DNA of 64,000 bases from a bacterium (GCA_030680695.1 JAUXUT010000149.1:39801-103800); one strand, 5' to 3'. Shown: positions 16,911 through 48,063, counted from the stretch's first letter. Program-made: numbers and translations. The notes: generated by a model not told the origin, from the letters alone.

Positions 16911-16912
16911 TG

Positions 16913-17305
16913 TGGAGATGCTGGGAGTCGAACCCAGGTGCACATGATCCTTCTCAACACTTCTACGCGATGTAGCTATTCTTTACCCCGATTAAGGGGT
17001 GTTAGGGCCGAGGGCTCGAGGAATAGCAGAACGCCCTTGACCCGATCCTCGTCGGCCGAAGCCGTTTACCGTGGGGAGAGGAGTCCCCGCGGCTATCCTG
17101 CATCTATGTCGCTGCTTGCCGGCGCGTCAGGAATGCACCGGGGCATCGTCGCTTAGGCTAGAGCGTAAGCGAATGAGAAATCCTTTGCCGCGAAAAACGG
17201 CGATTTGATGGATTTAGCATTTGTGGGTTCGGACAGATTAAAGAGTTATCCGGGCTCTATCGCGCATGAAGAGAAGGGAAGCATATGTCTATGCCTTTCA
17301 TCCCC
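16913..17305 (-). ncRNA. ssrA: tmRNA (ssrA)
   Basis: Minus strand: 5' GGGGATG... pairs with 3' ...CATCTCCA; T-arm CTGGGTTCGACTCCCAG; candidate tag ORF gca aag gat ttc tca ttc gct tac gct cta gcc TAA (AKDFSFAYALA); immediately downstream of smpB. Confidence 0.8.
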
Positions 17306-20935: not shown

Positions 20936-21008
20936 GCGCCCTTAGCTCAGTTGGTAGAGCGATCGACTTATACTCGATTGGTCGGGGGTTCGAGTCCCTC
21001 AGGGCGCA
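20936..21008 (+). tRNA. tRNA-Ile with anticodon TAT (UAU)
   Basis: Cloverleaf: acceptor GCGCCCT/AGGGCGC, D-arm GCTC..GAGC, anticodon stem ATCGA/TCGAT with loop CTTATAC, T-arm GGGGGTTCGAGTCCCTC; no encoded CCA. Confidence 0.8.
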
Positions 21009-21023
21009 CACGTTTCAGACCCA

Positions 21024-23806: not shown

Positions 23807-23895
23807 GGAGACGTGTCAGAGTGGTCTAACGTGCCTCTTTGCTAAAGAGGTGTACCCCTTAAAAGGTACCGAGGGTTCGAATCCCTCCGTCTCCG
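23807..23895 (+). tRNA. tRNA-Ser(GCT)
   Basis: Acceptor GGAGACG/CGTCTCC, anticodon loop TTGCTAA, long variable arm, T-arm GAGGGTTCGAATCCCTC. Confidence 0.9.
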
Positions 23896-24003
23896 CTACA
23901 AAAACTTTCTTTCGGAGTGACCCGAGTACCCCGGATTTCGGCTGAAAATAACGCTCGTATAGAACGTTCGAATCCCAGATAGGTGAGGGGACTAGATACA
24001 GGG
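23894..24003 (+). repeat. Direct repeat DR-A copy 1 (attL-like, abuts tRNA-Ser)
   Basis: About 110 bp repeated at 24859-24966 (~80% identity); first 36 bp also at 47921. Confidence 0.7.
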
Positions 24004-24037
24004 ACGGATAGGGTGTAAATGACCCGGAAACGTATAC

Positions 24038-24066
24038 TTGACTTATACGAGTATTGGGTGTATAAT
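24038..24066 (+). promoter_or_regulatory. Consensus sigma70-type promoter (TTGACT-17-TATAAT)
   Basis: ttgact tatacgagtattgggtg tataat, 120 nt upstream of the 24186 ORF. Confidence 0.6.
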
Positions 24067-24185
24067 ATATAAGTAAAAGTACTTTGAGAGACCGCGGTGT
24101 TTCGGTTGAGTTTGGAAGGAAATAAGCGATTGACTTGCTGGCACAAAGCCACGCGGATCGTAGGTTTCCTCACTAAACTCAACTC

Positions 24186-24680
24186 ATGAACACCATCACT
24201 CAAATCCCTGCTTGGGAAATCATCCGTCTTATCGCGAGAGCTCGTGCGAACTTCGTTCAGACTGTATGGAAAGAACTCAAACGCCAATCTGGCAAGCAAC
24301 CGTCTGAGAACGAAGAAAGCTATATTCGACAGGCTGCGGAAAACTTCGTCGGGCGCACTAGCGTCACGGGCGAGGCGATTGAAGCGGGCGAATACAGCCG
24401 GTCGTGCTCGATCGTTTTTCTGGGGGAGGCCCATAAGCAACTTGCCTACTTCGTGCCCTCCAAACTTCTGCTGCGCGATGTCGTCATTAACGATCAGGAA
24501 AAGGGTAATCTTCACGAGGGTTACTTGGTCACCGTGACCGTGCCCGAAGGCACGGACATCATCGAGTTCGATGGACGGAATGAGCCGCTCTGCCTGAAAG
24601 GAACGGTGTCGGCCGTGTTCGGGACATGCCTCCATGGCGAAGACGGATTCATTGTCTCGAGCTTCAAGCATACGACCTAA
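24186..24680 (+). CDS. Hypothetical protein (sole gene of mini-element E1)
   Basis: ORF with consensus promoter upstream and intrinsic terminator (24731-24758) downstream; the antisense 323-aa ORF is rejected. Confidence 0.5.
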   Translation: MNTITQIPAWEIIRLIARARANFVQTVWKELKRQSGKQPSENEESYIRQAAENFVGRTSVTGEAIEAGEYSRSCSIVFLGEAHKQLAYFVPSKLLLRDVVINDQEKGNLHEGYLVTVTVPEGTDIIEFDGRNEPLCLKGTVSAVFGTCLHGEDGFIVSSFKHTT

Positions 24681-24730
24681 TAGCGGTATCCCGCTCCAGT
24701 TCCTTGAGAGTCTGGCCAAACACTCTCTGC

Positions 24731-24758
24731 AACCCGCATTCGTGCGGGTTTTGTTTTG
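24731..24758 (+). terminator. Intrinsic terminator
   Basis: caacccgcattcgtgcgggttttgttttg. Confidence 0.65.
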
Positions 24759-24777
24759 TCTGGAAAGAAAAACTACG

Positions 24778-24860
24778 TGGGATTCGAACGAAATTTTTAA
24801 AGGGAAGGGGTCATATTTTAAGCCACGCAATTCGCGCCGTTCGAATCGCTTTTAACCCGC
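24778..24860 (+). repeat. Direct repeat DR2 copy 1 (degenerate tRNA 3'-like segment)
   Basis: tgggattcgaacg...tcatattttaagccac...ccgttcgaatcgcttttaacccgc; second copy at 33558-33639. Confidence 0.65.
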
Positions 24861-24966
24861 TACAAAAACTTTCTTTCGGAGTGACCCGAGTACTTCGATT
24901 TTCAGCTTGTTTATTAGTTAGAAAAGAACGTTCGAATCCCAGGTGGGTAGGGAACTAGATACAGGG
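24859..24966 (+). repeat. Direct repeat DR-A copy 2
   Basis: See copy 1. Confidence 0.7.
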
Positions 24967-25226
24967 TAGCTTTTGGTGATTTAGCAAATCTTTCAATTAT
25001 TGTGAAAACAATTCTCGTTGACGCAGTCGATTGTTTTTCTCAGACCTAGGAGAAAATCCACATTGTTATTGTCAACGAAAGTGGTGAGGGATACATAGCA
25101 TGACGCCAAGAAAAATATGCACTCTAAAATGATCTCCTTAGTTCTACTCTCCGGCTCAGAGAGAAGAGACTTGTATCAATAGATGACTCCGAAGTGCGTG
25201 GGAAGTCCAGAGCGGGGTGTTGGCAA

Positions 25227-26357
25227 CTAATCTTTAATGATCCTACTTAAAAAAGGATTAATATTAGTCGCAATGTCATCTGGTATCGTACCGCATTCTC
25301 TTGCAATATTCATAATAGAATTCTGGTCTCTCGCATCACTGCTAATGACTGTAACAGGGCTACCGAGTTTTACATCCTTGATTTCCGTCACATCAATTAT
25401 TGTCGTATTCATACTTACCAAACCGATTATTTTCGCAAAGTTATTGCCAATTTTTACCACGCCTTTATTTGATAGTCGTCTATCAACTCCCGTATCGTAG
25501 CCAACAGGTATTATGGCAATCTTTTTAGCTGAATCTGAAATATATGTCCCGCTGTAACCAACTTTTGAGTTTGGTTCAATATTTTTTAATCCTGATATAA
25601 CCGTTGTCAATTCCAGCACAGGCTTCAAATGAACTAACGAGTCAACTTTTCCATTGCCAGCAAAACCATATAGACCCATTCCAGGGCGAGTCACATTCGC
25701 ACTGATCTTTTCGTTATAGCCATGGCCAGCTGAATTACTTACATGAAAGTATCGGATGTTAGTAAAATTGGTTTTGAAAATATCGACAGCAGAATTCCAT
25801 GCTTCAATTTGGATATTTGTATAAGTCGAATCTGTATTACCTGCATCAGAAAAATGAGAATAAAGTCCTTCTAGTTTAAGAGTCGGTGATTTTTTTATGA
25901 GCTCAATCGATTGAGAGATTTGAGACAGAGAGATTCCTTGCCTATTCATTCCCGTATCAATTTTTATATGCACATTAGTTTTTTTACTTATTCTGCTTTG
26001 CCATTCGTAAAGCATGTCTAGACTCGTAACAGCGAATGATATATTTTTTTGGGTCGATTTGTTTACGGTTTCAGCTTGAATGTATCCAATTACGAGAATT
26101 GGGTTCGTTATTTTGTTCTGCCTGAGAGCTATGGCCTCCTCGTACGAATCAATAATAAAAAAAGGAATTTTTTCTTTACTTAATAATTTTGCAATATCGA
26201 TTAATCCATGGCCGTAGGCGTTGCTTTTTAATACTGGAGCTATGGCAGGTGAAAGTTTTTGAAATTCTTGGAAATTGTGGATAAGAGCCCGTCGAGAAAG
26301 TGATATGAGAGTGTACGGAGTTGATGGAGACTTTAACTTAAATGTGATTTTTATCAT
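25227..26357 (-). CDS. alr: Alanine racemase
   Basis: VLKSNAYGHG PLP-Lys motif, C-terminal VSMNTTIIDVT; low-GC context. Confidence 0.85.
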   Translation of the reverse strand: MIKITFKLKSPSTPYTLISLSRRALIHNFQEFQKLSPAIAPVLKSNAYGHGLIDIAKLLSKEKIPFFIIDSYEEAIALRQNKITNPILVIGYIQAETVNKSTQKNISFAVTSLDMLYEWQSRISKKTNVHIKIDTGMNRQGISLSQISQSIELIKKSPTLKLEGLYSHFSDAGNTDSTYTNIQIEAWNSAVDIFKTNFTNIRYFHVSNSAGHGYNEKISANVTRPGMGLYGFAGNGKVDSLVHLKPVLELTTVISGLKNIEPNSKVGYSGTYISDSAKKIAIIPVGYDTGVDRRLSNKGVVKIGNNFAKIIGLVSMNTTIIDVTEIKDVKLGSPVTVISSDARDQNSIMNIARECGTIPDDIATNINPFLSRIIKD

Positions 26358-26391
26358 TGAGATATTTTGATATTTATACTATTATACCCTT

Positions 26392-27846
26392 ATGTCAAGT
26401 GAACTAAAAAACAACAAGGTTGAAAAAAAGATTACCGGTAGGAATGAGGATTATTCCCAGTGGTATCTCGATATAGTTGCATCTGCCGATCTCGCAGAAT
26501 GGGGCCCTGTAAAGGGATGTATGGTCATCAAGCCTTATGGATATGCATTATGGGAAAAGACGCAGCAAATCCTCAATGAAAAATTCAAGGAGACTGGGGT
26601 ACAGAATGCATATTTCCCGATTTTTATTCCCGAAAAATTTCTCAATAAAGAGAAAGACCATATCGAGGGTTTTGCACCAGAGGTTGCGGTTGTCACTCAT
26701 GCCGGCGGCAAGAAGCTCGACGAGCCTTTGATTGTGAGGCCGACATCAGAGACTATAATGTACGAAACTTTTTCTCGTTGGATACATTCTTATCGAGATC
26801 TGCCATTGTTGATTAATCAATGGGCAAATGTGGTTAGGTGGGAGATGCGTCCCCGCATATTTTTACGTACGGTTGAATTTCTTTGGCAAGAAGGACATAC
26901 GGTTCACGAAACTGAAAGTGAGGCAGATGGACGGGCACGCCAGATGTTGGAAATTTATAAAGATATTGCCGAAAATATTATGGCCATTCCAGTTATTACT
27001 GGAACAAAATCTGATTCGGAAAAGTTTGCTGGTGCGTTTAAGACTTATTCGCTTGAAGCCATGATGCAAGACGGCAAAGCTTTGCAGTTTGCCACCTCAC
27101 ACAATTTGGGACAAAATTTTGCAAAAGCGTTTGATGTTAAATTTCTCGATAAAAACAACACCGTCCAATATGGATGGCAAACCAGCTGGGGGCTAAGCAC
27201 GCGAACCATAGGCGGTCTTATCATGACTCATAGTGATGATAAAGGATTAGTATTGCCACCAAAAATCGCCTCAATTCAAACGGTTATTACAACCATCGTT
27301 CCTTCCGAAAAAGACAGAGAAATGATAAATCAGAAAGCCCAAGAGCTTAACATACTCTTAAAGAAAGCAGGCGTTAGAACCCATGTTGATAGTCGCGATA
27401 TACGCCCTGGTGAAAAATATTATGAATGGGAAAAAAAAGGTGTTCCGATACGTATAGAGCTTGGGCCAAGAGATGTAGCCAGCGATTCCGCCATGCTTGT
27501 TAGACGCGATACTGGGGAAAAGACAAAGACAACCATGAGTTCTCTGGTCGGGGATATCAATTCTCTGTTAAATAACATACAGCAAAATTTGTACGTGCGA
27601 GCACTAGATTATCGCAAAGCAAAGACAAAAAAAGTTGATTCTTGGGATGAGTTTGTAAAAGCGATTGAGGAAGGCAATTTTGTTTTAGCTCATTGGTCTG
27701 GTGAGAAGAACGTCGAGGCTCAGATAAAAGAAGAAACGGGAGCCACTATTCGATGCATTCCGTTTGATCAGACAAATGAGTCTGGAAAATGTATAAAATC
27801 AGGCATGCCTTCTACGGGTCGGGTGATATTTGCGAAGTCTTATTAA
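26392..27846 (+). CDS. proS: Prolyl-tRNA synthetase, archaeal/eukaryotic-like class II type
   Basis: WYLDIV..ADLAEWGPVKGCMVIKPYGYALWE, VRPTSETIMY, NQWANVVRWEMR.R.FLRT.EFLWQEGHT and a C-terminal zinc-binding-like domain. Confidence 0.9.
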   Translation: MSSELKNNKVEKKITGRNEDYSQWYLDIVASADLAEWGPVKGCMVIKPYGYALWEKTQQILNEKFKETGVQNAYFPIFIPEKFLNKEKDHIEGFAPEVAVVTHAGGKKLDEPLIVRPTSETIMYETFSRWIHSYRDLPLLINQWANVVRWEMRPRIFLRTVEFLWQEGHTVHETESEADGRARQMLEIYKDIAENIMAIPVITGTKSDSEKFAGAFKTYSLEAMMQDGKALQFATSHNLGQNFAKAFDVKFLDKNNTVQYGWQTSWGLSTRTIGGLIMTHSDDKGLVLPPKIASIQTVITTIVPSEKDREMINQKAQELNILLKKAGVRTHVDSRDIRPGEKYYEWEKKGVPIRIELGPRDVASDSAMLVRRDTGEKTKTTMSSLVGDINSLLNNIQQNLYVRALDYRKAKTKKVDSWDEFVKAIEEGNFVLAHWSGEKNVEAQIKEETGATIRCIPFDQTNESGKCIKSGMPSTGRVIFAKSY

Positions 27847-27854
27847 CCCACTTT

Positions 27855-29021
27855 ATGCCCTTTAAGGTATCTATACATGATGATCTGTCTATAAAAGATC
27901 TGATAGATATTAAAGATAAGGGAGGGGTGGTGTTAAAAACACCGCATGTCGGCAATATCTACCCTAACAATCTTGCAATTGCGTCTTTAGGTATACCAAT
28001 GCTCTTTTACGATAGGACTTTGGGGGTCAAAGATATAAGTTTTCATCCAGATAAAATTATTATTGGTGGCAGGTCAACGTTAATAGCCGACCCAAACATT
28101 TTAACCACGCATTCAATAGTCAAAAAGCTTCCAGGTTTAGCGTTTAAAGATGCAGCTGTCGGTATGAAGCTGGTGGATTTTCATATGTCCTCATTTAAAC
28201 GTGCGTTACCTCAGGCGGACTGTTTTACCTACACGGAATATATTCAAAATAATAAAAGTCAGATTCTCCAGATTTTAGAAAAAATCACAGAATTTCATCC
28301 ATATTTGTGGAGCAGAGGTGTTGATGAAAGCGGAAAGACTTTTAAATCTCAAGCAAAAAATTGGGACGACATCATTAGGTCGGGAGTCCTGGGGCTTACC
28401 AGTATGAAAAGTGGTTGGATTATACCTAATCCGGTCAGCATCCTTTTTCATGGAACCGTTGATACGCTAAAGGCAAACGCAGAAGATGTGTATCTCTTAT
28501 CGGGTCCAGACATGTATCGATACATAGAGGGATACCAACTCGAACTTAACGAGGCGTACGACTATTTAAGAAAAAGCTTAAAGTGTGAACTTCCTGAAAT
28601 GGTTCGTTGTCATATTATTCCTGTCATTTGCATGAGATTTATCGTTGAGGTTGATTATAGGAAAGTGCTAGATAATTTGGTCGATGCATACTTGAGATAT
28701 GTATCTGTCGATGATGCTATCAGAAAAATACTAAAGAGTGGCGCTCAAAACATGAGCATCGATGGGCACATAAATAAAAAGGATAAAATAAAAGAGGAAA
28801 TCTATTCTTGTATCAAAGGTCAATTTGATGCATTCAAAACTACCATGTTTTATGATGTCGAGGAGGCGGGCAGTTTTAGTCAGTATGATCTCGCCAATAG
28901 TAAGGGACTATACGTTCATCCGTGGGCGGTCAATAGTAAACTAAGCGATGTATCCAAGGCTTATAGTTTTTTATTGAGGTGCTATTTGCTCGTAAGAGAT
29001 AGGCTACAGGAAGAGATGTAG
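27855..29021 (+). CDS. Hypothetical protein (389 aa), unknown family
   Basis: ORF; start moved to the MPFKVS Met to clear proS. Confidence 0.45.
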   Translation: MPFKVSIHDDLSIKDLIDIKDKGGVVLKTPHVGNIYPNNLAIASLGIPMLFYDRTLGVKDISFHPDKIIIGGRSTLIADPNILTTHSIVKKLPGLAFKDAAVGMKLVDFHMSSFKRALPQADCFTYTEYIQNNKSQILQILEKITEFHPYLWSRGVDESGKTFKSQAKNWDDIIRSGVLGLTSMKSGWIIPNPVSILFHGTVDTLKANAEDVYLLSGPDMYRYIEGYQLELNEAYDYLRKSLKCELPEMVRCHIIPVICMRFIVEVDYRKVLDNLVDAYLRYVSVDDAIRKILKSGAQNMSIDGHINKKDKIKEEIYSCIKGQFDAFKTTMFYDVEEAGSFSQYDLANSKGLYVHPWAVNSKLSDVSKAYSFLLRCYLLVRDRLQEEM

Positions 29022-29029
29022 CTACTGAT

Positions 29030-29782
29030 ATGTCAATGGAATATGATCCAATTTTATACGATTCCGATCCAAGGCCTTTTCTTAAAGATGAGATAGAATT
29101 TTACGTGAAACTAGTCAATAAATTAAAAGCTAAAACGATACTAGAGCTCGGTGTAGGAACAGGAAGAATTTTTTCAAAGTTACTTCCGTTGGTTAAATTT
29201 GCCGAGGGGCTTGATATTTCGGAATCAATGTTAACCGCATGCAGAAATAAGTGTTCTGGTAGCATGAACTACAAATTACATAAAGCGAGTTTTACGGATT
29301 TTAATTTGCAAACTACATTTGATTTGATATACCTGCCCTTTAATACTTTTCAACACCTGCTTACGCAGGAAGAGCAAATTGAGTGCTTGATAAATATTAA
29401 AAATCACATGCACGTGGGCAGTCGATTCATCCTTGATGTAATGAATGGCGATAATTTAATTTTTGATTTTGAAAACTGGAAACAGGACTATGTGGGCACT
29501 TTGGCTGAAGGTGGATCAGTTGAGCGCGAACAAAAAACGATTAAAGTAGATTCAAAGAATTTTATCATCCATAAAATATTCAGGTATAAAGAAATTGTCG
29601 CTGGTAAGATTGATAAAATTCTTGAATTTAATGCACAGATGAAAGTAACTCCAAATAAGAAGATGGGGGAAATTTTACAGATGACTGGCTTTAAGATAGA
29701 AGACGTATGGTCTGATTACGCTTTCAGTTATACGTGCGACGCGAAGAAAATAATTTATTGCTTAAAATTAAATGGAGTTTAA
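29030..29782 (+). CDS. Class I SAM-dependent methyltransferase
   Basis: ILELGVGTGR motif I and downstream acidic-loop motifs. Confidence 0.7.
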   Translation: MSMEYDPILYDSDPRPFLKDEIEFYVKLVNKLKAKTILELGVGTGRIFSKLLPLVKFAEGLDISESMLTACRNKCSGSMNYKLHKASFTDFNLQTTFDLIYLPFNTFQHLLTQEEQIECLINIKNHMHVGSRFILDVMNGDNLIFDFENWKQDYVGTLAEGGSVEREQKTIKVDSKNFIIHKIFRYKEIVAGKIDKILEFNAQMKVTPNKKMGEILQMTGFKIEDVWSDYAFSYTCDAKKIIYCLKLNGV

Positions 29783-31070
29783 ACCAACTACTATAAAGCT
29801 AGAAAAAGGACAGGTGGTCACATCAATTTACCATAGTCCATTTGACTACAATCTTCTGTACCTTATTTGTCTCGCAAAAACTGGGTTGAAGGTAAGAATC
29901 ATCCTGGACGATATAGATAATTTGGGAGTGGATAAAAGCTTTCCTGAGGGGCCATATTCTTTCAGTGAAAAGTTTTTTATGAGTAAAACAGAAAGAACAA
30001 ATATTCGAGCCCTGTCACTGATAACCCCAAAACATCTCTTTGCAAATTTGTCGCACCCAAACCTTAAGGAGTTTGACTCGAAAATCGGTATATCCACGTT
30101 CAAAGAAAACATCAGATATAGAGATACTGTTGAGCACTGGATCAGGGATGTTACGAAAGATTTCGGCACTTTTTCTCTTATTGGGCCAGATAGATCGTAC
30201 GCTTTTACCATAGTCGATCATTTTTTTGTTCAAGCAATTAGCGATGCTAAGCAGCAAATAATTGATATCTTGAAAAAATTCCCTGATCATAAAGATAACT
30301 CGATTGAATTTATTGAATGGCTTTTTGATGAAAAAGCCATTTCAATCGGCACGCCTGTCTCTGATTATTTTTTATCAGTGATGCAAAAGATCGTTGATAA
30401 ATTTGATTTGCGCGATACCGTATCAGTAGAAAGGATGTCGGACTCGGGTATTGAAGCGAATACAAAAAAACTTATGGATTCATTTACCAACAAAGATTCC
30501 CTGTGGGAGACGTATAATTATGCGGTGGTAATTGAAGGTAAAAAAAATACGGAGGATTTTCCATTTTACGCCATATCTAAGATGGACGGGAAAAGATTGC
30601 TACCTACTGATAAATACACAAATGATCCTACCAGTTATTTTCTTGCACCGAAGGTGTTGATGCTTAACAATTTTGAAAACCTCGTCTTGCCATATCATGC
30701 AATGGGTAGCATGAATGTCCGCGCCAGACAGGCAATGTATCAAAACAAAGAAATAAATTGCAATCAAATTTTCTGTGACGACGAATGGATGAAACACATA
30801 GGTTCTTTCAATATCAAGGCACAACTCGATACTGAGGAGCAAAAGATATATGATATGGATACAGTAAATTTATCTTCACTAGGAGATTTATTTGCGAAAG
30901 GGAAAAAATCATACGGAGACAGCGTAAATACAGAAGAGGCCTATAAGGGTTGGATAATTACCTCGACTTTCAATGCTATTGATCGCGTCAAATACCCACT
31001 AATTTTTATGGCACTCCTCCAAAAAGAAGTTTTTCCTACAAAAATTCCTATTTTTTACAAATTAGCATGA
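29772..31070 (+). CDS. Hypothetical protein (432 aa), unknown family
   Basis: ORF co-oriented and tightly packed with neighbours. Confidence 0.45.
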   Translation: MEFKPTTIKLEKGQVVTSIYHSPFDYNLLYLICLAKTGLKVRIILDDIDNLGVDKSFPEGPYSFSEKFFMSKTERTNIRALSLITPKHLFANLSHPNLKEFDSKIGISTFKENIRYRDTVEHWIRDVTKDFGTFSLIGPDRSYAFTIVDHFFVQAISDAKQQIIDILKKFPDHKDNSIEFIEWLFDEKAISIGTPVSDYFLSVMQKIVDKFDLRDTVSVERMSDSGIEANTKKLMDSFTNKDSLWETYNYAVVIEGKKNTEDFPFYAISKMDGKRLLPTDKYTNDPTSYFLAPKVLMLNNFENLVLPYHAMGSMNVRARQAMYQNKEINCNQIFCDDEWMKHIGSFNIKAQLDTEEQKIYDMDTVNLSSLGDLFAKGKKSYGDSVNTEEAYKGWIITSTFNAIDRVKYPLIFMALLQKEVFPTKIPIFYKLA

Positions 31071-32374
31071 TGTTGACTCTTCTCGAAAAAACGGCCGCGG
31101 CATTAATTTTAAAATTCAAACCCACGGTCGTGTGCATCACGGGTAGCGTGGGCAAGACTTCAACTAAGGAAGCAATAGCCTCTGCATTATCGACCTCCTA
31201 CACAGTCAGAAAGACTTCCCGAAATTATAATAATGATTACGGAGTACCGATAGCCGTTATCGGAGGATTTGAATCAGAAGAGGGCTATTTGGCATTACTT
31301 ACGATACTTGGCTACGGTTTATGGCAATTATACTTTCGATCAAGATTTCCACAGATTTTAGTCATAGAAGTCGGTGCCGGAAAATTTGGAGAAATCGAGA
31401 GAATCTCCCGATGGCTAAAACCTGATATGGTCGTAGTGACCAATCTCCCAGATGTTCCATCCCATCTTGGTGTTTTCGGGTCAAAAGAGATGATTATTAA
31501 GGAAAAGAAATTTCTTGTCAGTGCAATGGATAAAGAAGGAATTTTGATAATCGATAAAAACGAAAGAAATGCGAGGTATTTTTACGAGGATTTCTCCGGT
31601 AAAATTGTATTTTTTGATGCAGATAAATTTATTGAAGGCAGTAAATATACTATTGTGTATGAAGATCGAAACGATTTTAATTATCCGCTCGGTTTTAAAT
31701 TTGAGGTTGAATTAAACAACGCTGTAGACAGAAAATCCGTGACTTTTGAAGGATTTTTGGGTATTCAAAATATGAAGGCTGTTGGAATAGCGGTTTTGGT
31801 CGCTAAACAGTTAAATTGTCGAGTAGAAGATACTTTGCAAGGTATAAAAAAATATAAACCTGAGTGCGGACGCCTCAGAATAATCCCAGAGCTTAATGGA
31901 AAAATAATAGTGCTCGACGATACGTTTAATGCTTCGCCACGCGCGATTGAAAACTCATTAAGAACGCTTCTATCTTTGGAATTAAAAAAAAGCCAACGAC
32001 GGATCGCTGTTTTGGGAGATATGCTTAATTTTGGAAAAGAGGTAGAAAAGATTCACAGACAAACTGCCACGGAAGAATTACCACAGGTCGATATTCTTAT
32101 AACGGTAGGAAACATATCAGTTGTCTGGCAAGAATTTAATAGAAATAAATACCATTTGAACAAGCATTTTAAAAATGCGACTAACGCCGCTCGGTATATA
32201 GAGAAATTTCAAAAAGAAGGCAATATTATCCTTTTTAAAGGAGGTCATTTAACACGTCTTGAGAAAGCGGTTGCCATTCTAACTGGATGCCCCTCCGAGT
32301 ATCTTGTTCGACAAGAGAAGTACTACGAGATACACGAACTCGATCTTAATCCAATATCCGCCGACAATGAATAA
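31067..32374 (+). CDS. Mur ligase family protein, MurF-like (D-Ala-D-Ala-adding-enzyme-like)
   Basis: VVCITGSVGKTSTKEAIASAL P-loop, VTNLPDVPSHLGVFGSKE, GRLRII...IVLDDTFNASP and AVLGDMLNFG motifs of MurF or the CphA C-domain. Confidence 0.7.
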   Translation: MMLTLLEKTAAALILKFKPTVVCITGSVGKTSTKEAIASALSTSYTVRKTSRNYNNDYGVPIAVIGGFESEEGYLALLTILGYGLWQLYFRSRFPQILVIEVGAGKFGEIERISRWLKPDMVVVTNLPDVPSHLGVFGSKEMIIKEKKFLVSAMDKEGILIIDKNERNARYFYEDFSGKIVFFDADKFIEGSKYTIVYEDRNDFNYPLGFKFEVELNNAVDRKSVTFEGFLGIQNMKAVGIAVLVAKQLNCRVEDTLQGIKKYKPECGRLRIIPELNGKIIVLDDTFNASPRAIENSLRTLLSLELKKSQRRIAVLGDMLNFGKEVEKIHRQTATEELPQVDILITVGNISVVWQEFNRNKYHLNKHFKNATNAARYIEKFQKEGNIILFKGGHLTRLEKAVAILTGCPSEYLVRQEKYYEIHELDLNPISADNE

Positions 32375-33356
32375 ATACAAATCAAAAATTACTCCAATTT
32401 TGTTGAAGTTGGCCGAAAAATACAACGCTGAATTTCATGTAATGGATCACGATTCTGACGCTGGTTATATCGTAGGGCAAGATCACAGCAGACATTATTT
32501 TTCCTATGGAACACTGGATTTGAATAATGATGCCGCTACTGATTTTGCGAGAAGTAAGATTCTATCCTCTGAAGTCGTTTCGGCGATTAGGATCAGGGTT
32601 CCGAAGGAAAAGATGGTTAAATTCTCAATAAATTTAAAGGCCCCTATCATTAGTGTTTTGGAGGAAATCGGAACACCCGCGATAATAAAACCAGTACATG
32701 GAGCACAGGGAAAAAATATATTTAAGATAGATTCCTTAAATAATTTTGAGCTAGTTATTAAGAATAACGATTTGAGGGATGATTTAATCATTCAAGAATA
32801 TATTGACTCTCCAAATGAGATCAGGGTCGTTCTTTTAGACGGTGAAGTAATACAGGCATATAAGAGAGATTATGCGTGTGTTATCGGCGACGCGGTAAAA
32901 ACGATAAAAGAATTGATCGAAGAAAAGAATAAATATTTTCAGAACAGACAACGTAATACTGTTATCGATACAAATGACACCCAGATAGCTGTCATTCTTC
33001 AGCAACGTGGATACGATTTGAATTACATACTACAAAAAAATGAAAGACTAAATATTTCTTATGGGCGTAATTTATCGAGAGGCGGAGAGTATGAGTTTAT
33101 TACCAAGCTCAGTCCGATAATCATAGAAGTTTCTAAAAAGATTGCTGAGGCCTCCGCTCTGAGGCTGGTGGGCATTGATTTGTTTGTTGTGGGAGATCTT
33201 GACCATGTAGAGAGCGAGAATCAAATTATCTTCATAGAATATAATGCATCACCAGATATGGAGAATAATTTCTATTATGATGCTGGCTACGAACAACAAT
33301 TATTTTTGATATATGAAAAAATCTTTAGTGGAATGTGCAAATATTCCTTATTGTAA
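32367..33356 (+). CDS. ATP-grasp ligase, cyanophycin-synthetase-N-domain / RimK-like
   Basis: IIKPVHGAQGKNIF; VIGDAVKTIKELIEEKN...LNISYGRNLSRGGEYEF...LVGIDLFVV...IFIEYNASPDME; ATGA start-stop overlap with the MurF-like gene. Confidence 0.65.
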   Translation: MNKYKSKITPILLKLAEKYNAEFHVMDHDSDAGYIVGQDHSRHYFSYGTLDLNNDAATDFARSKILSSEVVSAIRIRVPKEKMVKFSINLKAPIISVLEEIGTPAIIKPVHGAQGKNIFKIDSLNNFELVIKNNDLRDDLIIQEYIDSPNEIRVVLLDGEVIQAYKRDYACVIGDAVKTIKELIEEKNKYFQNRQRNTVIDTNDTQIAVILQQRGYDLNYILQKNERLNISYGRNLSRGGEYEFITKLSPIIIEVSKKIAEASALRLVGIDLFVVGDLDHVESENQIIFIEYNASPDMENNFYYDAGYEQQLFLIYEKIFSGMCKYSLL

Positions 33357-33557
33357 GTAAGTGGTGACGGTCAGCGAATACATCGATCCGTATTCAGGAA
33401 ACTTGACGCAATCTATTTCGAGCACAGCCCTGAGGCGGTCGAGAGCGCACAAAAAGCTGGCGTTGCCTCATATCTTTATGGCCACATCAAAAAAAGACTT
33501 GATTGCGCTAAAGACTTTTTTGATTCGAGCTTGTAGAGCCTGTGGGCGAAGGTTATC

Positions 33558-33639
33558 TGGGATTCGAACGGAATCTCGGAGAGGCGTATTCATATTTTAA
33601 GCCACAAAATCCGCTCCGTTCGAATCGCTTTAAACCCGC
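33558..33639 (+). repeat. Direct repeat DR2 copy 2 (E2/E3 junction)
   Basis: See DR2 copy 1. Confidence 0.65.
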
Positions 33640-33762
33640 CTTGACAATTTAGTATCGGCGTGACCCTATTACTCGCGAGAGTAGTGCGACCCACGAACCT
33701 GCTAGATTGTACAAAACACCAAGAGAATTCTCTTGGTGTTTTGTTGTTTATATAATTATGAA

Positions 33763-34468: not shown

Positions 34469-35311
34469 CTAAATTATCCTCCCATCAATTTCGTGGAATA
34501 AATTGCTGACCATGATAAGGCGACCGAGTGCATCGTGATGCGGAAGCTGATCTTCATCGCCGTGACTAAGATTATTCCTCCACCAGTGCATGATGCCCAT
34601 AGTGGTAAGTTTGAAGCCGAGTTGCTTATTGATCTCCTGCGGTGTTGATAGAGCGTTGAACTTTATTTTCGGGTTCTGCTCACTGAAAACAGCCGCCATC
34701 AAATCAGACCCTTGCTTATCATGAGTGCTTGTAAGGTCTTGGATCGTCTTCTCGAACCTTTCAAGGGCTTTCCGCACTGACTCGTTGATATGACCCTCGA
34801 TGAACATTTTTTTGCAGTCAGGCAGAAGCGATGGATGAAGAACAAACGCATCAAGTATTTTTTGAATCGCTATCGGAGGTGGCACTGTCCTCGGTCTTTC
34901 CTTTGGAAGATTCATTGCTACAATTTCTGATTCAAGATCAATATTGAGAGCCTTAAGTCGGGTTGAAAGTTCGAGTGCTTCAGCTTCCAATACAGGATCG
35001 CCTTTCTCGTGTCGCTTTTCTATTGCCTTCGGTAGCATCTCCCGCACGAGGATTTTTATTGTTCTTGGCTTCTGGCAATAAAGATTTCGCAAGAACTCAT
35101 AGAAAGACTCCTTCTTGTTGGCTGCTTTCGTAGGAAGATATTTCGACAAACCCCTTTCTTTTGCAATTGTCGTCAAAGAAAAGGAACTTCGGAATCCTGA
35201 AAGAGCGATGAGCTTTCCGAGCTGTTCTGCCAGTGCACGGATCGCCTGCGCTTGCGGTGCTGTGACGGTCACTCTTTTCTTTGCAATCTTTTTCTTGGTC
35301 TTCTTTTTCAT
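34469..35311 (-). CDS. Abi_C/HEPN-like protein (TIGR02391-like)
   Basis: C-terminal MHWWRNNLSHGDEDQLPHHDA containing an Rx4H HEPN-type motif of the Abi_C kind; Lys-rich N-terminus. Confidence 0.5.
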   Translation of the reverse strand: MKKKTKKKIAKKRVTVTAPQAQAIRALAEQLGKLIALSGFRSSFSLTTIAKERGLSKYLPTKAANKKESFYEFLRNLYCQKPRTIKILVREMLPKAIEKRHEKGDPVLEAEALELSTRLKALNIDLESEIVAMNLPKERPRTVPPPIAIQKILDAFVLHPSLLPDCKKMFIEGHINESVRKALERFEKTIQDLTSTHDKQGSDLMAAVFSEQNPKIKFNALSTPQEINKQLGFKLTTMGIMHWWRNNLSHGDEDQLPHHDALGRLIMVSNLFHEIDGRII

Positions 35312-35983: not shown

Positions 35984-37333
35984 TTATTCCGTCACCAAGG
36001 TCAGAGTCTTGTCCTTGTAGATGATTCTCGATCGCAGATTCGCTAACAGCTCCCGCTTCTCGCTCGTCATACCTTCCTTGAGAATGTACTTGGCATAGTT
36101 GCGGATATCGGTATCCTTGTCGGTCTTGATCTTTTCCGTTGCTCCAAGCACCGATCTCTGGAATATATTGTATCGGTTGATCTCTTCCTCAAGCTTCTGC
36201 CTCATGCCAAGCTCGTTGATGTTCACCTTGTCGAGAATTTTCAGAAGCTCCGTGATGAGTTCCTCCTCACGGATATATTTGTTCTTGCAATTTCTGTCTC
36301 TTGCTCGTGAACATGAGTAGTAGATGTAGCGGTTGGCACCACCATCTTTCAATTGCTTCCATTTCTCCTCCGCCGATATTCCACTCTGGCAATATCCGCA
36401 GGTAAATAATTTGGTGAAGGCAAACTCTTTCGTCTCTCGCACGATCTGATCACGCTTCAGTTGTGCTTTCACTTTTTCAAACAATTCCTGCGTGATGAGT
36501 GGCTGATGTTTTCCTTGATACCAGTTGCCACTCTCCCTCGGTCTCTCAAAGATTCCGTAGTAGAAGGGATTCTCAAGTATTCGATAGACTCCACTTAAGG
36601 TCAGTGGCTTGTTGCCTCTGGTGTAGAAGTTCAGCTCGAACCTCATCCAGTTGTAGACCTTCCGTCCACTCCATTGCTCGTATGCGACTTTCTCAAACAT
36701 CTTTTTGATGGTCGGCGCTCTTTGCGGATCGACAAGCACCTGTCCTTTCTTATCCATGTGCTTTTGGTTTAGATATCCAAGGGGCGCCGTTCCGACCCAT
36801 AGTCCCATCTCGCATCGCGTTCTAAGTCCTCGCTTCACGTTGATGCCTCGGTTGTCGTTTTCCAATTTCGCTTGAGAACAGAGAATCATCAGCATGAATT
36901 TGTCGTTCGGGCTGTTCGTGAATCTCTGTCCGTAGGTGCGGATGTCCTGCAAATAATTTCCATCCATGAGGTCGATGACTTTCCCGAGATCGCCTGCGTT
37001 TCTTGAAATACGGTCTGGTGCCCATGTTAGTATTCCGTTGAATTTTCCTTGCTTGATCTCATCCACGATCTCGTTGAAGACGGGGCGTTGCCCAGTCTCC
37101 TTGGCCGAGTGCGACTCTCGCTTCATGGTCACGATCTCCAACCCCTCACGCTCGGCAAGCTGAAGCATCTCATTGATTTGGCTATCTATGGAGAGGACTT
37201 GCCGTTCCTCCGATTCCGTCGACTTTCTTGCGTAAAGGCAGTATTTCACCTTTACGGGGCTTGCTACTTTGGCCGCAGTCCCTAATGGCTCTGGTCCTTG
37301 TATTCTTGTCATACAACACAAGGAATGACGCAA
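35984..37333 (-). CDS. Large serine recombinase (integrase)
   Basis: N-terminal resolvase catalytic domain YARKSTESEE...SIDSQ, recombinase domain, C-terminal Cys zinc ribbon and coiled coil. Confidence 0.85.
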   Translation of the reverse strand: MRHSLCCMTRIQGPEPLGTAAKVASPVKVKYCLYARKSTESEERQVLSIDSQINEMLQLAEREGLEIVTMKRESHSAKETGQRPVFNEIVDEIKQGKFNGILTWAPDRISRNAGDLGKVIDLMDGNYLQDIRTYGQRFTNSPNDKFMLMILCSQAKLENDNRGINVKRGLRTRCEMGLWVGTAPLGYLNQKHMDKKGQVLVDPQRAPTIKKMFEKVAYEQWSGRKVYNWMRFELNFYTRGNKPLTLSGVYRILENPFYYGIFERPRESGNWYQGKHQPLITQELFEKVKAQLKRDQIVRETKEFAFTKLFTCGYCQSGISAEEKWKQLKDGGANRYIYYSCSRARDRNCKNKYIREEELITELLKILDKVNINELGMRQKLEEEINRYNIFQRSVLGATEKIKTDKDTDIRNYAKYILKEGMTSEKRELLANLRSRIIYKDKTLTLVTE

Positions 37334-38720: not shown

Positions 38721-38948
38721 GTGATTGGCACTGCTCGTCACACAGAGGAAAAGACGTTCACTGTGCTGTATCGACCTCTATACGAAAATGATTGGTTCAA
38801 ACCTGCTACCTACCAAGCAAGGCCGCTAGAAATGTTCAACGAAAGTGTCACGAAAGATGGCAAGGCGATTCCTCGTTTTCAGCAGATAACCGATCCAGAG
38901 TTAATTGCAAAACTCGAAAAGATGCGAGATCAAATTTATGGAAAATAA
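38721..38948 (+). CDS. DUF1653-family small protein; conserved N-terminus extends upstream without an ATG
   Basis: In-frame upstream read-through gives PPTGFYYHYKHDPNGPFNDYSYEVIGTARHTEEKTFTVLYRPLY...RPLEMF, the DUF1653 pattern; the open frame begins at 38649 (ATA) after a TAA. Confidence 0.5.
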   Translation: MIGTARHTEEKTFTVLYRPLYENDWFKPATYQARPLEMFNESVTKDGKAIPRFQQITDPELIAKLEKMRDQIYGK

Positions 38949-39489
38949 TAAAGAGCAAAATATAAAAATACTAAAAGCAATTCCAGAAGACGCTCTGGGT
39001 ATTACGACTGTTCTATATAAAACCTGGCTCGATACATATCCAAACGAAGAAATTGGCATCACCAAGGAAGATGTTGAGGAAAGTTATAAAGACCACTTCA
39101 TGGAGGAGCGAGTGAAAAAGCAACAGGAGAATATTGCAAATGCTCCAGCGAATCAACTGCGACTTGTTGCAAAATCTGGTGATCAGATTGTTGGAGTCTC
39201 AACGATGATTCGTAATGAAAATAATAATCAGCTAAGGACAATTTATGTTCTCCCTGAATTTCAAGGAAGGGGCATCGGTCAAATGTTGTGGAAAGAAGCG
39301 CAAAAGTTTTGTGATTCGACAAAAGATACTATTGTTCAAGTTGCTACCTACAACAAAAATGCCATATCTTTTTACGAAAAATTAGGTTTTACAGATACTG
39401 GTAAAAGATGGTCCGATGATAAATGGAAGATGAAGAGTGGTGCAACTATTCCAGAAATGGAGCTAATCATAAAAGTAAATAATTTATAA
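38938..39489 (+). CDS. GNAT-family N-acetyltransferase
   Basis: LRTIYVLPEFQGRGIGQMLW acetyl-CoA-binding motif A. Confidence 0.7.
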   Translation: MENNKEQNIKILKAIPEDALGITTVLYKTWLDTYPNEEIGITKEDVEESYKDHFMEERVKKQQENIANAPANQLRLVAKSGDQIVGVSTMIRNENNNQLRTIYVLPEFQGRGIGQMLWKEAQKFCDSTKDTIVQVATYNKNAISFYEKLGFTDTGKRWSDDKWKMKSGATIPEMELIIKVNNL

Positions 39490-39493
39490 ACGT

Positions 39494-40846
39494 ATGCCCT
39501 TAATGACTTATGACGAATATCAAAAGAATCGACACAAAACTCCCTATCTTCTTACGATAAGAGCGGGTTCAAATTTTCTCTATTATTTTGGAGAACGCCA
39601 CTCATTTAATCCAGAAGACACCCAATGGGTTGAAGAAAAAGAATTTTGGGACAAGTTTTTGTCTGACACAGAAAATCAGAAAAGAATCGTCTTTGTTGAA
39701 GGCGGTAAGCGACCAGATGAAGTAGACGAAAAACAATCGATTCTCAAACATGGTGGAATGGGTCTCACGACATATTTCGCACATCAAGCAGGCATAGAGA
39801 CATATTCACCTGAACCAGATGAAAAATGGGAACGCTCTGAACTGGAAAAAGAATTTACGAGAGAACAAATCCAGTGCTATTACTTCTCTCGTGTCGTTCA
39901 TCAATGGGGTCGCAAGCAAAATCCAAAACCAGTATTTGAAGAATATATAACACACTTTCTAGAGGGTGATAAAAAAGAAAGTGGGTGGAGTGATTTTGAT
40001 TTCTCACTTGAATCAATGAAGAAGATTTATGTCGATATTTTTCATACTGCTTTTAATGAGAATAATACTGATTTTTTCTATAGTGTAGTTAATCCTGTCG
40101 AGCTGAAGACGATTGTTAACAAAGTATCTCGCGCCTCAAGCGAAATACGCGATAAATATATCGTTGGAAAAATAGAGGAATATATCAAACAAGAATACTC
40201 AATCTTCGCTCAATACGGATGCAGCCACGTTGTAATGCAGGAACCTCTATTAAAGGAAATTTTTTCAGAGTCTCAAAAAGATTGGTCAGACTACTACAAG
40301 GCAACCAAAGCAAAACCTCCACGCCCCTTGTTGGTGAAGGCGTTTGAATATGTTGCCGAGAAAAATAAGGCAATCGATATTGGCGGTGGTGCACTCAACG
40401 ATACGAAGTATCTTCTTAAACAAGGCTTTGATGTTACCGTGATCGATAAAAGCCCTCTCATGGAACAAGAGGCTAAGAATATTCCGAGTGACAGGCTGCA
40501 TGCTTTCACTGTCGGGTTTGAAGATTTCGATTTTTTAGAGAATGAATATGATCTCGCGTCCGCAATGTATGCTTTGCCATTTATTGATCCCGCTCATTTC
40601 GATTCCATCTTTACCAAAATAAAAAGTTCTCTCAAGACAGGTGGCATATTCTGCGGTCAGTTTTTTGGAGAGCGTGATGAGTGGTCAACGAATCCAAAAA
40701 TGACTTTTCACACAAAAGAGCAAGCGGAAAATCTACTCAGCGATTTAGAGATCATTTCTTTCAAGGAAGAAGAAAAGGAAGATAAAACAGCCAAGGGCGA
40801 TATGAAGCATTGGCATATCTTTCACATAATCGCTCGGAAAAAATAA
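39494..40846 (+). CDS. Fusion protein: unknown N-domain plus C-terminal class I SAM methyltransferase (TehB-like)
   Basis: AIDIGGGALNDTKYLLKQGFDVTVIDKSP motif I; about 270-aa N-domain of unknown function. Confidence 0.55.
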   Translation: MPLMTYDEYQKNRHKTPYLLTIRAGSNFLYYFGERHSFNPEDTQWVEEKEFWDKFLSDTENQKRIVFVEGGKRPDEVDEKQSILKHGGMGLTTYFAHQAGIETYSPEPDEKWERSELEKEFTREQIQCYYFSRVVHQWGRKQNPKPVFEEYITHFLEGDKKESGWSDFDFSLESMKKIYVDIFHTAFNENNTDFFYSVVNPVELKTIVNKVSRASSEIRDKYIVGKIEEYIKQEYSIFAQYGCSHVVMQEPLLKEIFSESQKDWSDYYKATKAKPPRPLLVKAFEYVAEKNKAIDIGGGALNDTKYLLKQGFDVTVIDKSPLMEQEAKNIPSDRLHAFTVGFEDFDFLENEYDLASAMYALPFIDPAHFDSIFTKIKSSLKTGGIFCGQFFGERDEWSTNPKMTFHTKEQAENLLSDLEIISFKEEEKEDKTAKGDMKHWHIFHIIARKK

Positions 40847-40848
40847 TA

Positions 40849-41835
40849 TGGAAGCCATTTTACAAAAAATAACAGATCAATACGGACTTCGACTACAGCA
40901 TCTACAAAAAGTAGACCAAGGTTTTTTGACTGATAATCATATCCATCACGGATGGAGCGACCAAGTATTTTTTAAAGAAGTACAGGTTTAAAAATGTAGA
41001 GAAAATTAAGGAAATCCATTCCGTTAAGAAATATTTCTCAGACGGAGGGATTTCTGTCATCATGCCGATTAACACGAAAGACGGGAATAGCTTCTTCGAA
41101 CTAGAGGAAAGCTTTTATGCTCTATTTCCTTTTATCGATGATCGGCAAATGCAAGGCGAACAAATTACAAACAAAGCGGTTATCTCCTTGGCTGAAACCT
41201 TGGCAAGAATGCACCTCTTGGGTCGGGATGCCAAAATACCAGTAAGTGATTCTTTCAAGATGTGGGACAGGCAAAAGAGACTATCTGCCATTGAACAGAT
41301 TTTGGAGAAGATAAGCCAAATAAAAAATAAATCCGATTTTGATATTCGAGCCGAAAAGAACATTCTTTTCAAGAAAAATATTATTGAGTCGAAAAAAGAG
41401 GAGTATGAAAACTTGAAATTCAATAATGATCACTTGATACATGGTGATTATATGATCCAAAATGTGTTCTTTGATGGAAACGATAATGTTTCCTACGTTT
41501 TTGATTTTGAGAAAACGCAATACGCACCGCGATTTTTCGAACTATTCCGAGCAATGATTTATAGTTCATTTTTCGATAAGGAAATTACTGAAGCAATGGT
41601 GGCGCGCACAAAGCTCTTTTTGGATTCGTATCTCGAAATATATCCCGCAACTAAAGAAGATCTCGTAGAGAATTTTGAGATGTATTATTTGAGATCAGCC
41701 CATTCCGTATGGGTAGAAGAAGAGCACTATTTGAGGAATAATGACAGAGTTGATGAGCTCCTGAAAAGTGACATCGTACGAGTTAATTATCTGACGAATA
41801 ATTTAGAAAGCCTGAAGCTATTTTTGTTTAAATAA
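40849..41835 (+). pseudogene. APH/choline-kinase-family phosphotransferase, frameshifted paralog of gene 6380-7363
   Basis: N-terminal fragment MEAILQKITDQYGL...FFKEVQV stops at about 40990; the frame resumes (...SDGGISVIMPINTKDGNSFFELEESFYALFPFID) and aligns to the chromosomal YFLKQ...LFPFIEG paralog; C-part has HGDYMIQNVFFDGN and VFDFEKTQY. Confidence 0.5.
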
Positions 41836-47350: not shown

Positions 47351-47920
47351 ATATTTTCTTCGTTATTAATAATGGGCACAGTATGCGTTCTTAATTCGAG
47401 CAGAAGTGTAGGAATTGCTTTTCTGCTCTTGGCACTATGGTAAATCCCAAAAAGTGACAAATCGTGGTGCATTACTTTTGCCTCCTACAATGCTACTCGT
47501 GAAAAAATGCAAAAAGGTGTGCATTACTTTCGCCACCCAGAATCGTATGCTGGCCAACGCATCCAATTAGTGGGTATTGAAATCGTATCGGGCCAAAAGC
47601 CTCCTGTCTGGGGGAATTACCTGGCAAGAAATAGATATAAAAATTAGTCCAGTGATCCTCTGAAAATATGCAAAATCAAAATGGCACACTGCTTTGGCAC
47701 AGTGTGCTGTTTCAATACCTCTAAAATACCCTTATGTGGCTTGGTGGATGATATCTAAACCGCCTTGCAAACACTCATTTGAAACACTGCCCCTGCGTGT
47801 GCCAAATTGTGCCAATTTGGAAAAACTAGACCCCGACCCACGAACTTCAAATTGGTCAGTCCGAATATGCTAAAATACCCTTACAAGGTCTTACTTGTGG
47901 GGTACTTAACCCACGATGCC

Positions 47921-47956
47921 CGCTACAAAAACTTTCTTTCGGAGTGTCCCAGGTAC
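47921..47956 (+). repeat. Direct repeat DR-A copy 3 (right boundary of the island)
   Basis: cgctacaaaaactttctttcggagtgtcccaggtac; GC content rises immediately after. Confidence 0.65.
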
Positions 47957-48063
47957 GTCGACTCTCACCTGAAAACAACATCCCAATCCAGCGTCACAAT
48001 CTCAGATGGCTTCGGAACCAGATGTGGACAGGTTTTACCACTACCACACGTTATACTTACCTT

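Follow-up and report, generated by a model that had tools for sequence, protein, structure and literature searches.

A block of seven intact, tightly packed open reading frames (ORFs) occupies positions 25227-33356 of a 64,000-nucleotide stretch of bacterial DNA (GCA_030680695.1 JAUXUT010000149.1:39801-103800), hereafter the window, which is also the whole of the host genome covered in this study. An initial annotation had described this block as a low-GC element, bounded by att-like repeats, that encodes a candidate amide-bond-forming system. Here, we describe the genes of this cassette, its recurrence among the ultra-small bacteria of the Candidate Phyla Radiation (CPR, or Patescibacteria), and the pathway that it might encode.

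Results

Gene content and organization of the cassette

Gene models were assigned with Pfam and NCBIfam/TIGRFAM using curated cut-offs, and tRNA genes with ARAGORN and Rfam. The leftmost gene, alr (25227-26357), lies on the minus strand, divergent from the six plus-strand genes, and encodes an alanine racemase (TIGR00492, 275.7 bits; cut-off 168). The plus-strand operon begins with proS (26392-27846), whose product matches the prolyl-tRNA synthetase (ProRS) model TIGR00408 at 604 bits against a cut-off of 437. It is followed by unk1 (27855-29021; 388 residues), the gene for a class I S-adenosylmethionine (SAM)-dependent methyltransferase (29030-29782; Methyltransf_25, Methyltransf_31 and Methyltransf_11), unk2 (29772-31070; 432 residues), the gene for a Mur ligase whose best model is murF (31067-32374; TIGR01143, 207.5 bits; cut-off 288.6), and the gene for a 329-residue ATP-grasp ligase (32367-33356; TIGR02068, 110 bits). 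The start of unk1 is placed at 27855, as in its homologues; a 410-residue ORF opening at 27789 does not begin at the homologues' start. Successive gaps or overlaps along the six plus-strand genes are 9, 9, -11, -4 and -8 nt, and the Mur ligase and ATP-grasp genes meet in an 8-nt overlap, the junction reading ATGAATAA. The region from 25 to 34 kb has a GC content of 0.35-0.41, against about 0.50 leftward. The initial annotation is thus upheld as to the seven co-packed genes, their low GC content, the class II ProRS, the SAM methyltransferase, the MurF-like ligase and the coupling of the latter to the ATP-grasp gene.

A promoter-like site on the plus strand (26357..26385; TTGAGA-17-TATTAT, 10 of 12 positions), 6 nt 5' of the proS ATG, is a mere consensus match. 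A terminator-like hairpin (33711..33744), the sole strong one on the plus strand, lies 3' of the cassette; its 17-bp stem is perfect, and a T-rich tail comes after it. An 8877-bp Logan contig from run SRR13727517 is identical to window positions 24864-33740 and stops at this hairpin. Between the stop codon of the ATP-grasp gene and the right-hand repeat described below, about 200 bp (33357-33557) are GC-richer, hold no ORF of 80 or more residues, and may represent a gene remnant that came with the cassette.

A six-gene operon is conserved and mobile among CPR bacteria

The cassette is present in at least ten independent CPR loci, and the order proS-unk1-methyltransferase-unk2-Mur ligase-ATP-grasp is constant in every locus with readable context (the window and, in our numbering, L003-L005, L006, L007, L014/L015, L016, L019/L020, L021, L022 and L023). 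The metagenome-assembled genomes (MAGs) that carry it are labelled Saccharibacteria, Parcubacteria, Moranbacteria and Kaiserbacteria. Identity to the window protein across loci is 52-83% for ProRS, 35-65% for unk1, 38-65% for the methyltransferase, 36-60% for unk2, 32-71% for the Mur ligase and 38-65% for the ATP-grasp ligase. The GC content of the cassette is 0.33-0.37 at all loci and that of its flanks 0.33-0.50. These flanks are unrelated from locus to locus and often contain mobile-element genes, such as a serine recombinase and an HTH_17 gene in L003, a Y1 transposase in L007, an rve-type insertion sequence element in L019, and type I restriction-modification genes in L022. The cassette is a horizontally mobile operon and a conserved functional unit, and the suggestion that its genes form a system is borne out by their co-occurrence, in one order, in all readable loci. 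In L021 unk1 is frameshifted (8075-9248), through decay or sequencing error, with the other five cassette genes intact.

Relatives of unk2, a protein confined to the cassette, fall into 31 clusters (90% identity) among 5.8 billion proteins, all of them from metagenomes or CPR MAGs. When 185,579 species-representative genomes were scanned for such relatives, the cassette turned up in only 3, namely one MAG of Kaiserbacteria and two of Saccharibacteria. No relatives of unk2 are found in IMG/VR or PLSDB and none of unk1 in INPHARED, on which grounds a phage or plasmid origin was rejected. PADLOC gives no defence-system match for the cassette, only a generic methyltransferase-domain match, and an anti-phage function was likewise discarded. 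A pathway for a ribosomally synthesized and post-translationally modified peptide of the graspetide or daptide-like type was also rejected, given gaps of at most 9 nt within the operon and no small ORF conserved at either cassette end across loci. The core cassette contains no exporter or transporter gene, and neither a conserved tRNA gene nor a conserved candidate target protein.

The alr gene, originally counted as a member of the system, is real and adjoins the operon, but it is accessory to the conserved core: of about 10 loci, 4 have it next to the cassette (the window, L006, L015 and L019), and L003, L007, L021 and L022 lack it. The Kaiserbacteria variant, L016, carries three inserts, namely an alr-like remnant, a gene for a D-Ala-D-Ala ligase (Ddl) and a gene for a PhyH-type dioxygenase, together with an APH kinase gene upstream. 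Its Ddl gene lies directly 5' of the Mur ligase gene, and the product passes TIGR01205 (284.7 bits against 245.65).

Predicted fold and genomic context of unk1 and unk2

The two large proteins had been described as having no recognizable family, which holds for their sequences. Neither unk1 nor unk2 has a Pfam or NCBIfam match at E<=0.01, PDB profile searches are empty, and all members of the two families searched against Pfam at E<=10 return nothing. Alignment of unk1 with unk2 by hhalign is negative, as is that of each with class I lysyl-tRNA synthetase (LysRS; 1irx), and Foldseek of unk2 against the PDB yields nothing significant. A fold is nonetheless recognizable: structural models of both proteins show a Rossmann core with connective peptides and a helical C-terminal part, which assigns them to the fold of BshC and of aminoacyl-tRNA synthetases (aaRSs) of class I. 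This assignment, made from predicted structure only, is at the level of fold rather than family, and neither protein belongs to the BshC sequence family. No glycosyltransferase or deacetylase gene that would indicate a bshA/bshB association is present in any cassette locus. The predicted fold of the two proteins strengthens the proposal of an amide-bond-forming system.

In unk1, the residues T-P-H-V-G-N occur right after the first beta-strand, with H31 and G33 invariant in 53 sequences, and HVGN is identical to the tetrapeptide that forms the HIGH-type motif in P. horikoshii LysRS (checked against 1irx). An invariant S-G-P-D follows a later strand and, judging from secondary structure, would occupy the position at which class I synthetases have G-x-D. 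The motifs H-S-P-F and M-S-D of unk2 stand at positions matching the HVGN and S-G-P-D of unk1. No KMSKS motif was identified in unk1, and its 388 residues, against 523 in class I LysRS, leave no room for an anticodon-binding domain.

In a sister clade of unk1 (32-38% identity; Uhrbacteria and others), the gene belongs to a conserved trio whose other members encode an M19 dipeptidase and a glutamate-racemase-like protein, the latter scoring 119-135 bits with TIGR00067, just under the cut-off. The trio is found in four loci with differing flanks, three of them near murA. Sister and more distant members lie in L009 (10001-12900), L011 (10001-14572), L027 (6001-8928), L028 (6001-8917) and L013 (6869-8673). 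In L011 two unk1-like copies flank the dipeptidase/racemase-like pair, and a distant member adjoins a gene for an Asp-type racemase. Because racemase-like neighbours recur in both sister and distant loci, the unk1 family is repeatedly linked to D-amino-acid metabolism, and the context of the sister clade ties it to wall metabolism as well.

The prolyl-tRNA synthetase and the methyltransferase

ProRS is encoded in all cassette loci, always by the first gene of the operon. The window protein is of the archaeal/eukaryote-like type, matches Pfam tRNA-synt_2b, HGTP_anticodon and ProRS-C_1, and aligns over its full length with T. thermophilus ProRS (1h4q, 567 bits), keeping the catalytic motifs and the C-terminal Tyr and losing some of the zinc-binding cysteines. 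Judged by its sequence, it looks canonical. Because the island that bears the cassette is recently acquired and the cassette is rare, we infer that ProRS, MurF and alr are extra copies in their host.

The methyltransferase scores 58 bits with a daptide methyltransferase model (cut-off 175), and its best PDB relatives are 9sot, CcbJ (4hgy), CypM (7wzg) and DesVI/TylM1. It is probably an amine N-methyltransferase, by similarity to these proteins; CcbJ N-methylates celesticetin's prolyl unit. The idea of an AZE synthase was abandoned in view of the same PDB relatives, which are amine N-methyltransferases.

The Mur ligase and the ATP-grasp ligase

The Mur ligases of the cassette form a clade of about 30 clusters with at least 52% identity. 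Their next relatives, at 30-37% identity, number more than 1500 CPR proteins of equal length, and the two that were looked up (L017 8001-9299 and L018 8001-9308; 33-34% identical) lie in mraZ-rsmH-ftsL-PBP-murF clusters. Since the nearest relatives outside the cassette belong to such division and cell wall (dcw) clusters, sequence comparison identifies the cassette gene as a diverged MurF paralogue, 33-36% identical to the dcw-cluster MurFs of CPR bacteria and located in a mobile cassette rather than in a dcw cluster. Over 30 cassette and 89 dcw-type CPR MurFs, 58 positions are invariant. These include all catalytic motifs, among them G25-S31 (P-loop), E100, H132, K146, D283-P290 (DDxxNxSP), K390 and R396. 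The cassette enzyme, which was also aligned with 3zl8, therefore retains the P-loop, Glu, His, Lys, DDxYNAxP and C-terminal KGS/G..R..E motifs of the family. Its P-loop is found at residue 26, the N-terminal domain that solved MurFs have being absent. The dcw-cluster MurFs of CPR bacteria, at about 430 residues and with a P-loop near residue 26, equally lack the N-terminal domain of about 65-80 residues present in all solved MurFs. The short N-terminus is thus uninformative as to substrate, and we discarded it as a sign of a non-UDP or otherwise unusual substrate.

The best models for the ATP-grasp ligase are the G domain of cyanophycin synthetase (110 bits; cut-off 850), Ngg, RimK (55.6 and 71 bits) and GshAB. 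Among its best PDB relatives are 8fxh, 3ln6 and 7lg5, which represent a RimK-domain/CphA2-type protein, GshAB and CphA1. Its initial placement nearest the cyanophycin-synthetase/RimK group therefore stands. It is not a member of the Ddl family (Dala_Dala_lig_C, 16.5 bits; Ddl NCBIfam models, 16.6-27 bits) and belongs to a small discrete family of 4-5 representatives at 50% identity, beyond which identity drops to 25-28%.

The cassette is a module of a composite island at a tRNA-Ser gene

A tRNA-Ser(GCT) gene (23807..23896, plus strand; ARAGORN and Rfam), the apparent integration target, overlaps with its 3' end the first copy of a core att-like repeat, CCGCTACAAAAACTTTCTTTCGGAGTGACCCGAGTAC (23893..23930), at the left end of the island. 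The second copy, at 24856, together with a tRNA-like remnant makes up the left repeat of the cassette module (24778..24894), which is matched by a degenerate right repeat (33558..33673; 75% over 120 nt, E 1.6e-16); a degenerate copy of the core lies at about 33635. The third copy (47919..47979), 82-87% identical to those at 23893 and 24856, marks the right end of the composite island. Alignments of 23875-24003 with 24839-24966 (80% over 130 nt, E 3e-25) and of 24856-24907 with 47919-47970 (87%, E 1e-11) illustrate the likeness of the three core copies, for which E-values range from 1e-10 to 3e-25. The GC content is 0.37-0.47 up to 48 kb and 0.53-0.60 thereafter. From the core repeats at 23893, 24856 and 47919 and the rise in GC content at 48 kb, we conclude that the cassette is the leftmost of the modules in a composite island that spans about 24 kb. 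The att-like repeats first reported to bound the cassette are real, but the cleanest pair brackets this larger island instead.

A large serine recombinase (35984..37333, minus strand; Resolvase, Recombinase and Zn_ribbon_recom) is the probable mobilizer. Over its full length it shares 58.6% identity with the recombinase encoded directly upstream of the cassette in L003-L005, which suggests that recombinase and cassette travel together. With repeats that include a tRNA 3' end and a site-specific recombinase, the element is predicted to be a tRNA-targeted integrative element.

Beyond the cassette, the island holds a HEPN-like Ymh protein, a second low-GC module, a helicase-like gene and two DNA methylases. 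The Ymh gene (34469-35311; Hypoth_Ymh/TIGR02391), between the cassette and the recombinase, has weak PADLOC matches to Aga_HEPN and PD-Lambda-3_B and is possibly a defence or abortive-infection gene of the island. The second low-GC module (38905-42842) encodes a GNAT protein, a 450-residue protein with a C-terminal SAM-methyltransferase domain, an APH-type kinase and a 230-residue protein of no assigned family. The methyltransferase half of the 450-residue protein is 60% identical to a 186-residue methyltransferase of the Saccharibacteria locus L015 (14744-16028), where, 5 kb downstream of the cassette, the gene lies directly 5' of a cyclodipeptide synthase gene (TIGR04539, 98.8 bits). An APH kinase gene lies just 5' of the cassette in L016 (5297-6241). 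The GNAT/methyltransferase/APH module, the methyltransferase-cyclodipeptide synthase pair and the L016 kinase may represent accessory functions in loose linkage. At its right end (42844-47350) the island encodes a 698-residue helicase-like protein and a pair of adjoining N6/N4 DNA methylases (45331-46149 and 46064-47350), beside which no restriction enzyme is obvious. A small element of 964 bp and about 50% GC (23897-24860) between core repeats 1 and 2 contains one ORF of 164 residues (24186-24680) with no Pfam match.

In the left flank of the window, a tmRNA gene (16910-17305; tag peptide AKSIKSPFFAAKDFSFAYALA) lies in a kilobase of GC content 0.40 within surroundings of about 0.52, with smpB nearby according to Logan gene calls. 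A tRNA-Ile gene with the anticodon TAT (UAU) is present at 20936-21009. This tRNA is unusual in bacteria, in which AUA is normally decoded by a lysidine-modified CAU tRNA.

Discussion

The reading that we favour, tentatively and at somewhat less than even odds, is that the cassette encodes a mobile, ribosome-independent pathway of stepwise peptide ligation, built around a second MurF and acting on the cell's own peptidoglycan precursor. It would be a wall-remodelling module with a logic analogous to that of van, murF2 or fem-type modules. In the order of steps that we propose, the MurF paralogue would add a D-Ala-containing dipeptide, made by Alr and Ddl of the cassette or of the host, to the carboxylate of a stem-peptide-type acceptor, and the ATP-grasp ligase would form one more carboxylate-to-amine bond via an acyl-phosphate. 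unk1 and unk2 would each attach an amino acid to an amine, either via an aminoacyl-adenylate or from an aminoacyl-tRNA, the dedicated ProRS would supply activated proline, and the methyltransferase would cap a free amine. A peptidoglycan-precursor acceptor is narrowly favoured over a free-peptide acceptor because the MurF paralogue keeps its catalytic motifs, because alr and Ddl genes have been recruited into the cassette, because the sister clade of unk1 adjoins a glutamate-racemase-like gene, and because the core cassette lacks an exporter. Several observations weigh against this proposal. Neither proline nor N-methylation is known from peptidoglycan stem peptides, so that a ProRS present in every locus and an N-methyltransferase of natural-product type are better explained by a metabolite pathway. 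The cassette MurF falls below the TIGR01143 cut-off, as does the L016 copy at 166.9 bits, and carries 21 fixed clade-specific differences, so that its substrate may have changed.

The main alternative, to which we give only slightly lower odds, reads the cassette as a small gene cluster for the biosynthesis of a free peptide or peptide conjugate that is N-methylated and contains proline and D-Ala, perhaps an inhibitor of ProRS or a mimic of the stem peptide. The ProRS would then supply Pro-tRNA to the synthetase-fold transferases, serve as the producer's resistant copy of the target, or both. We know of no MurF-type ligase from a natural-product pathway, and the links to alr, Ddl and a MurI-like gene point to wall metabolism; the core cassette also contains no exporter or transporter, and no sign of resistance is apparent in the canonical-looking active-site motifs of the ProRS. 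Such a cluster would, however, account for the invariable first position of the ProRS gene, for a methyltransferase whose closest solved relatives are the natural-product amine N-methyltransferases CcbJ, CypM and DesVI/TylM1, for the patchy and mobile distribution, and for the PhyH-type dioxygenase and APH kinase of L016 and the methyltransferase and cyclodipeptide synthase downstream of the cassette in L015. The combination of an extra aaRS with aaRS-fold aminoacyl transferases has natural-product precedent (PMC12945691). A bolder version, which we consider unlikely, assigns the BshC-fold proteins to a new enzyme class whose amide formation depends on aminoacyl-tRNA, with Pro-tRNA, and a further activated amino acid, delivered by the dedicated ProRS. 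Acting jointly with the MurF paralogue and the ATP-grasp ligase, they would build an N-methyl-prolyl peptide ending in D-Ala-D-Ala, a free stem-peptide mimic that episymbiotic CPR bacteria might use as antibiotic or decoy, or to manipulate their host. If this were true, the coupling to an aaRS would suggest an aminoacyl-tRNA as the long-sought activated donor of BshC.

Three further readings are less likely. Modification of a macromolecule, whether by RimK-like addition of amino acids to the C-terminus of a protein, GluQRS-like aminoacylation of a nucleoside in tRNA or methylation of the translation apparatus, would give the ProRS, a translation enzyme, a part in the same function and would suit the RimK matches of the ATP-grasp ligase. 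It has no place for a MurF paralogue, Alr or Ddl, finds no conserved tRNA gene or target protein in the cassette, and relies on likenesses to RimK and GluQRS that are weaker than those to CphA/GshAB and BshC/class I LysRS; we regard it as quite improbable. That alr, proS and murF are simply the housekeeping genes of their host, lying in a low-GC patch, is harder still to credit. All three look catalytically intact by sequence, and the 64-kb window contains no second copy of any of them. Yet the block lies 10-15 GC points below its surroundings, beside att-like repeats, a tRNA gene and a serine recombinase; the cassette is rare, as its three occurrences among species-representative genomes and the 31 clusters of unk2 attest; the dcw-cluster MurFs that are normal for CPR genomes are only 33-36% identical to its Mur ligase; and the lineage must have had a ProRS before the island arrived. 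Least probable of all is a split cyanophycin synthetase or other non-ribosomal polyamide synthase, as entertained in the initial annotation, with the ATP-grasp and Mur ligases as counterparts of the CphA G and M domains. The G domain is indeed the best curated model for the ATP-grasp ligase, and proteins of the CphA1/CphA2 type are among its best PDB matches, but the score is far under the cut-off of 850, the Mur ligase prefers the murF model (207 bits) to the CphA M domain (21.6 bits), no CphA N domain is present, the two separate genes stand in the reverse of the CphA domain order, and a polymer synthase would leave the four other conserved genes unexplained. A cyanophycin-like synthase was accordingly rejected on model scores.

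No description of this combination of genes was met with in the literature library searched, PADLOC gives no defence-system match, and the original remark that no described system matches the arrangement still applies. The enzyme superfamilies are known; what is new is two protein families and the way in which an aaRS, BshC-fold proteins and a MurF paralogue are brought together, which has no precedent. CPR bacteria are regarded as metabolically minimal episymbionts, among which an operon that is conserved and mobile and encodes up to five ATP-dependent bond-forming enzymes would rank with very few known modules dedicated to biosynthesis or wall remodelling. The two families defined here, with a predicted class I synthetase/BshC fold, include one, unk1, whose sister clade lies beside a glutamate-racemase-like gene elsewhere in the CPR. 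The pairing in one operon of this fold and a tRNA synthetase provides a hypothesis, open to test, on the donor substrate of BshC, and a product that inhibited an aaRS or mimicked the stem peptide would be of antibiotic interest.

Among known systems, the cassette resembles stem-peptide assembly by Alr, Ddl and MurF, and the murF2 van-type modules, in having a MurF-family ligase with all catalytic motifs, an alr and in one variant a ddl gene physically linked to it, and an ATP-grasp ligase coupled to it. As in murF2 modules, this MurF appears to be an accessory mobile copy beside the usual dcw MurF of the phylum. It differs from van-type modules in that family scans of the cassette and its neighbours reveal no VanH, no Ddl-family D-Ala-D-Lac/Ser ligase of the VanA/B/C type, no VanX and no VanRS regulators, and in that its ATP-grasp ligase belongs with CphA, GshAB and RimK rather than with Ddl. 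ProRS, two synthetase-fold proteins and an N-methyltransferase are unprecedented in the synthesis of wall precursors. The ATP-grasp domain is closest to the CphA1/CphA2, GshAB and RimK group, whose members lengthen a C-terminal carboxylate by a single amino acid via an acyl-phosphate. The cassette enzyme differs from these proteins as a stand-alone ligase that scores far under every curated cut-off, and its partner, unlike that of the CphA G domain, is MurF-like rather than M-domain-like.

unk1 and unk2 resemble ligases of the BshC/MshC type in their similar size and in lacking an anticodon-binding domain, and their chemistry is presumed to be the same, the addition of an amino acid to an amine. 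They differ from BshC in having no sequence-level similarity to it, in a context without bshA or bshB, and in occurring as two distinct copies that share an operon with an aaRS. BshC itself joins cysteine to an amino sugar, in a reaction that has never been reconstituted and whose activated donor is unknown (PMC5790435), so that its mechanism cannot be transferred to unk1 and unk2. In the clusters for ascamycin (AcmD/AcmF) and SB-203208 (SbzA), an extra aaRS accompanies aaRS-fold transferases, with precedent for a dual role in supply and immunity (PMC12945691). The cassette is similar in that its extra aaRS, full-length and apparently functional, stands with synthetase-fold proteins devoid of a tRNA-charging architecture, and a dual role of its aaRS in supply and immunity is plausible. 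The transferases of those clusters, however, are paralogues of their own aaRS (AlaRS-like and IleRS-like), whereas those of the cassette are predicted to be BshC/class I LysRS-like and stand beside a class II ProRS. The cassette lacks nucleoside-sulfamate genes and has a MurF paralogue and an ATP-grasp ligase, and its hosts are CPR bacteria rather than Streptomyces.

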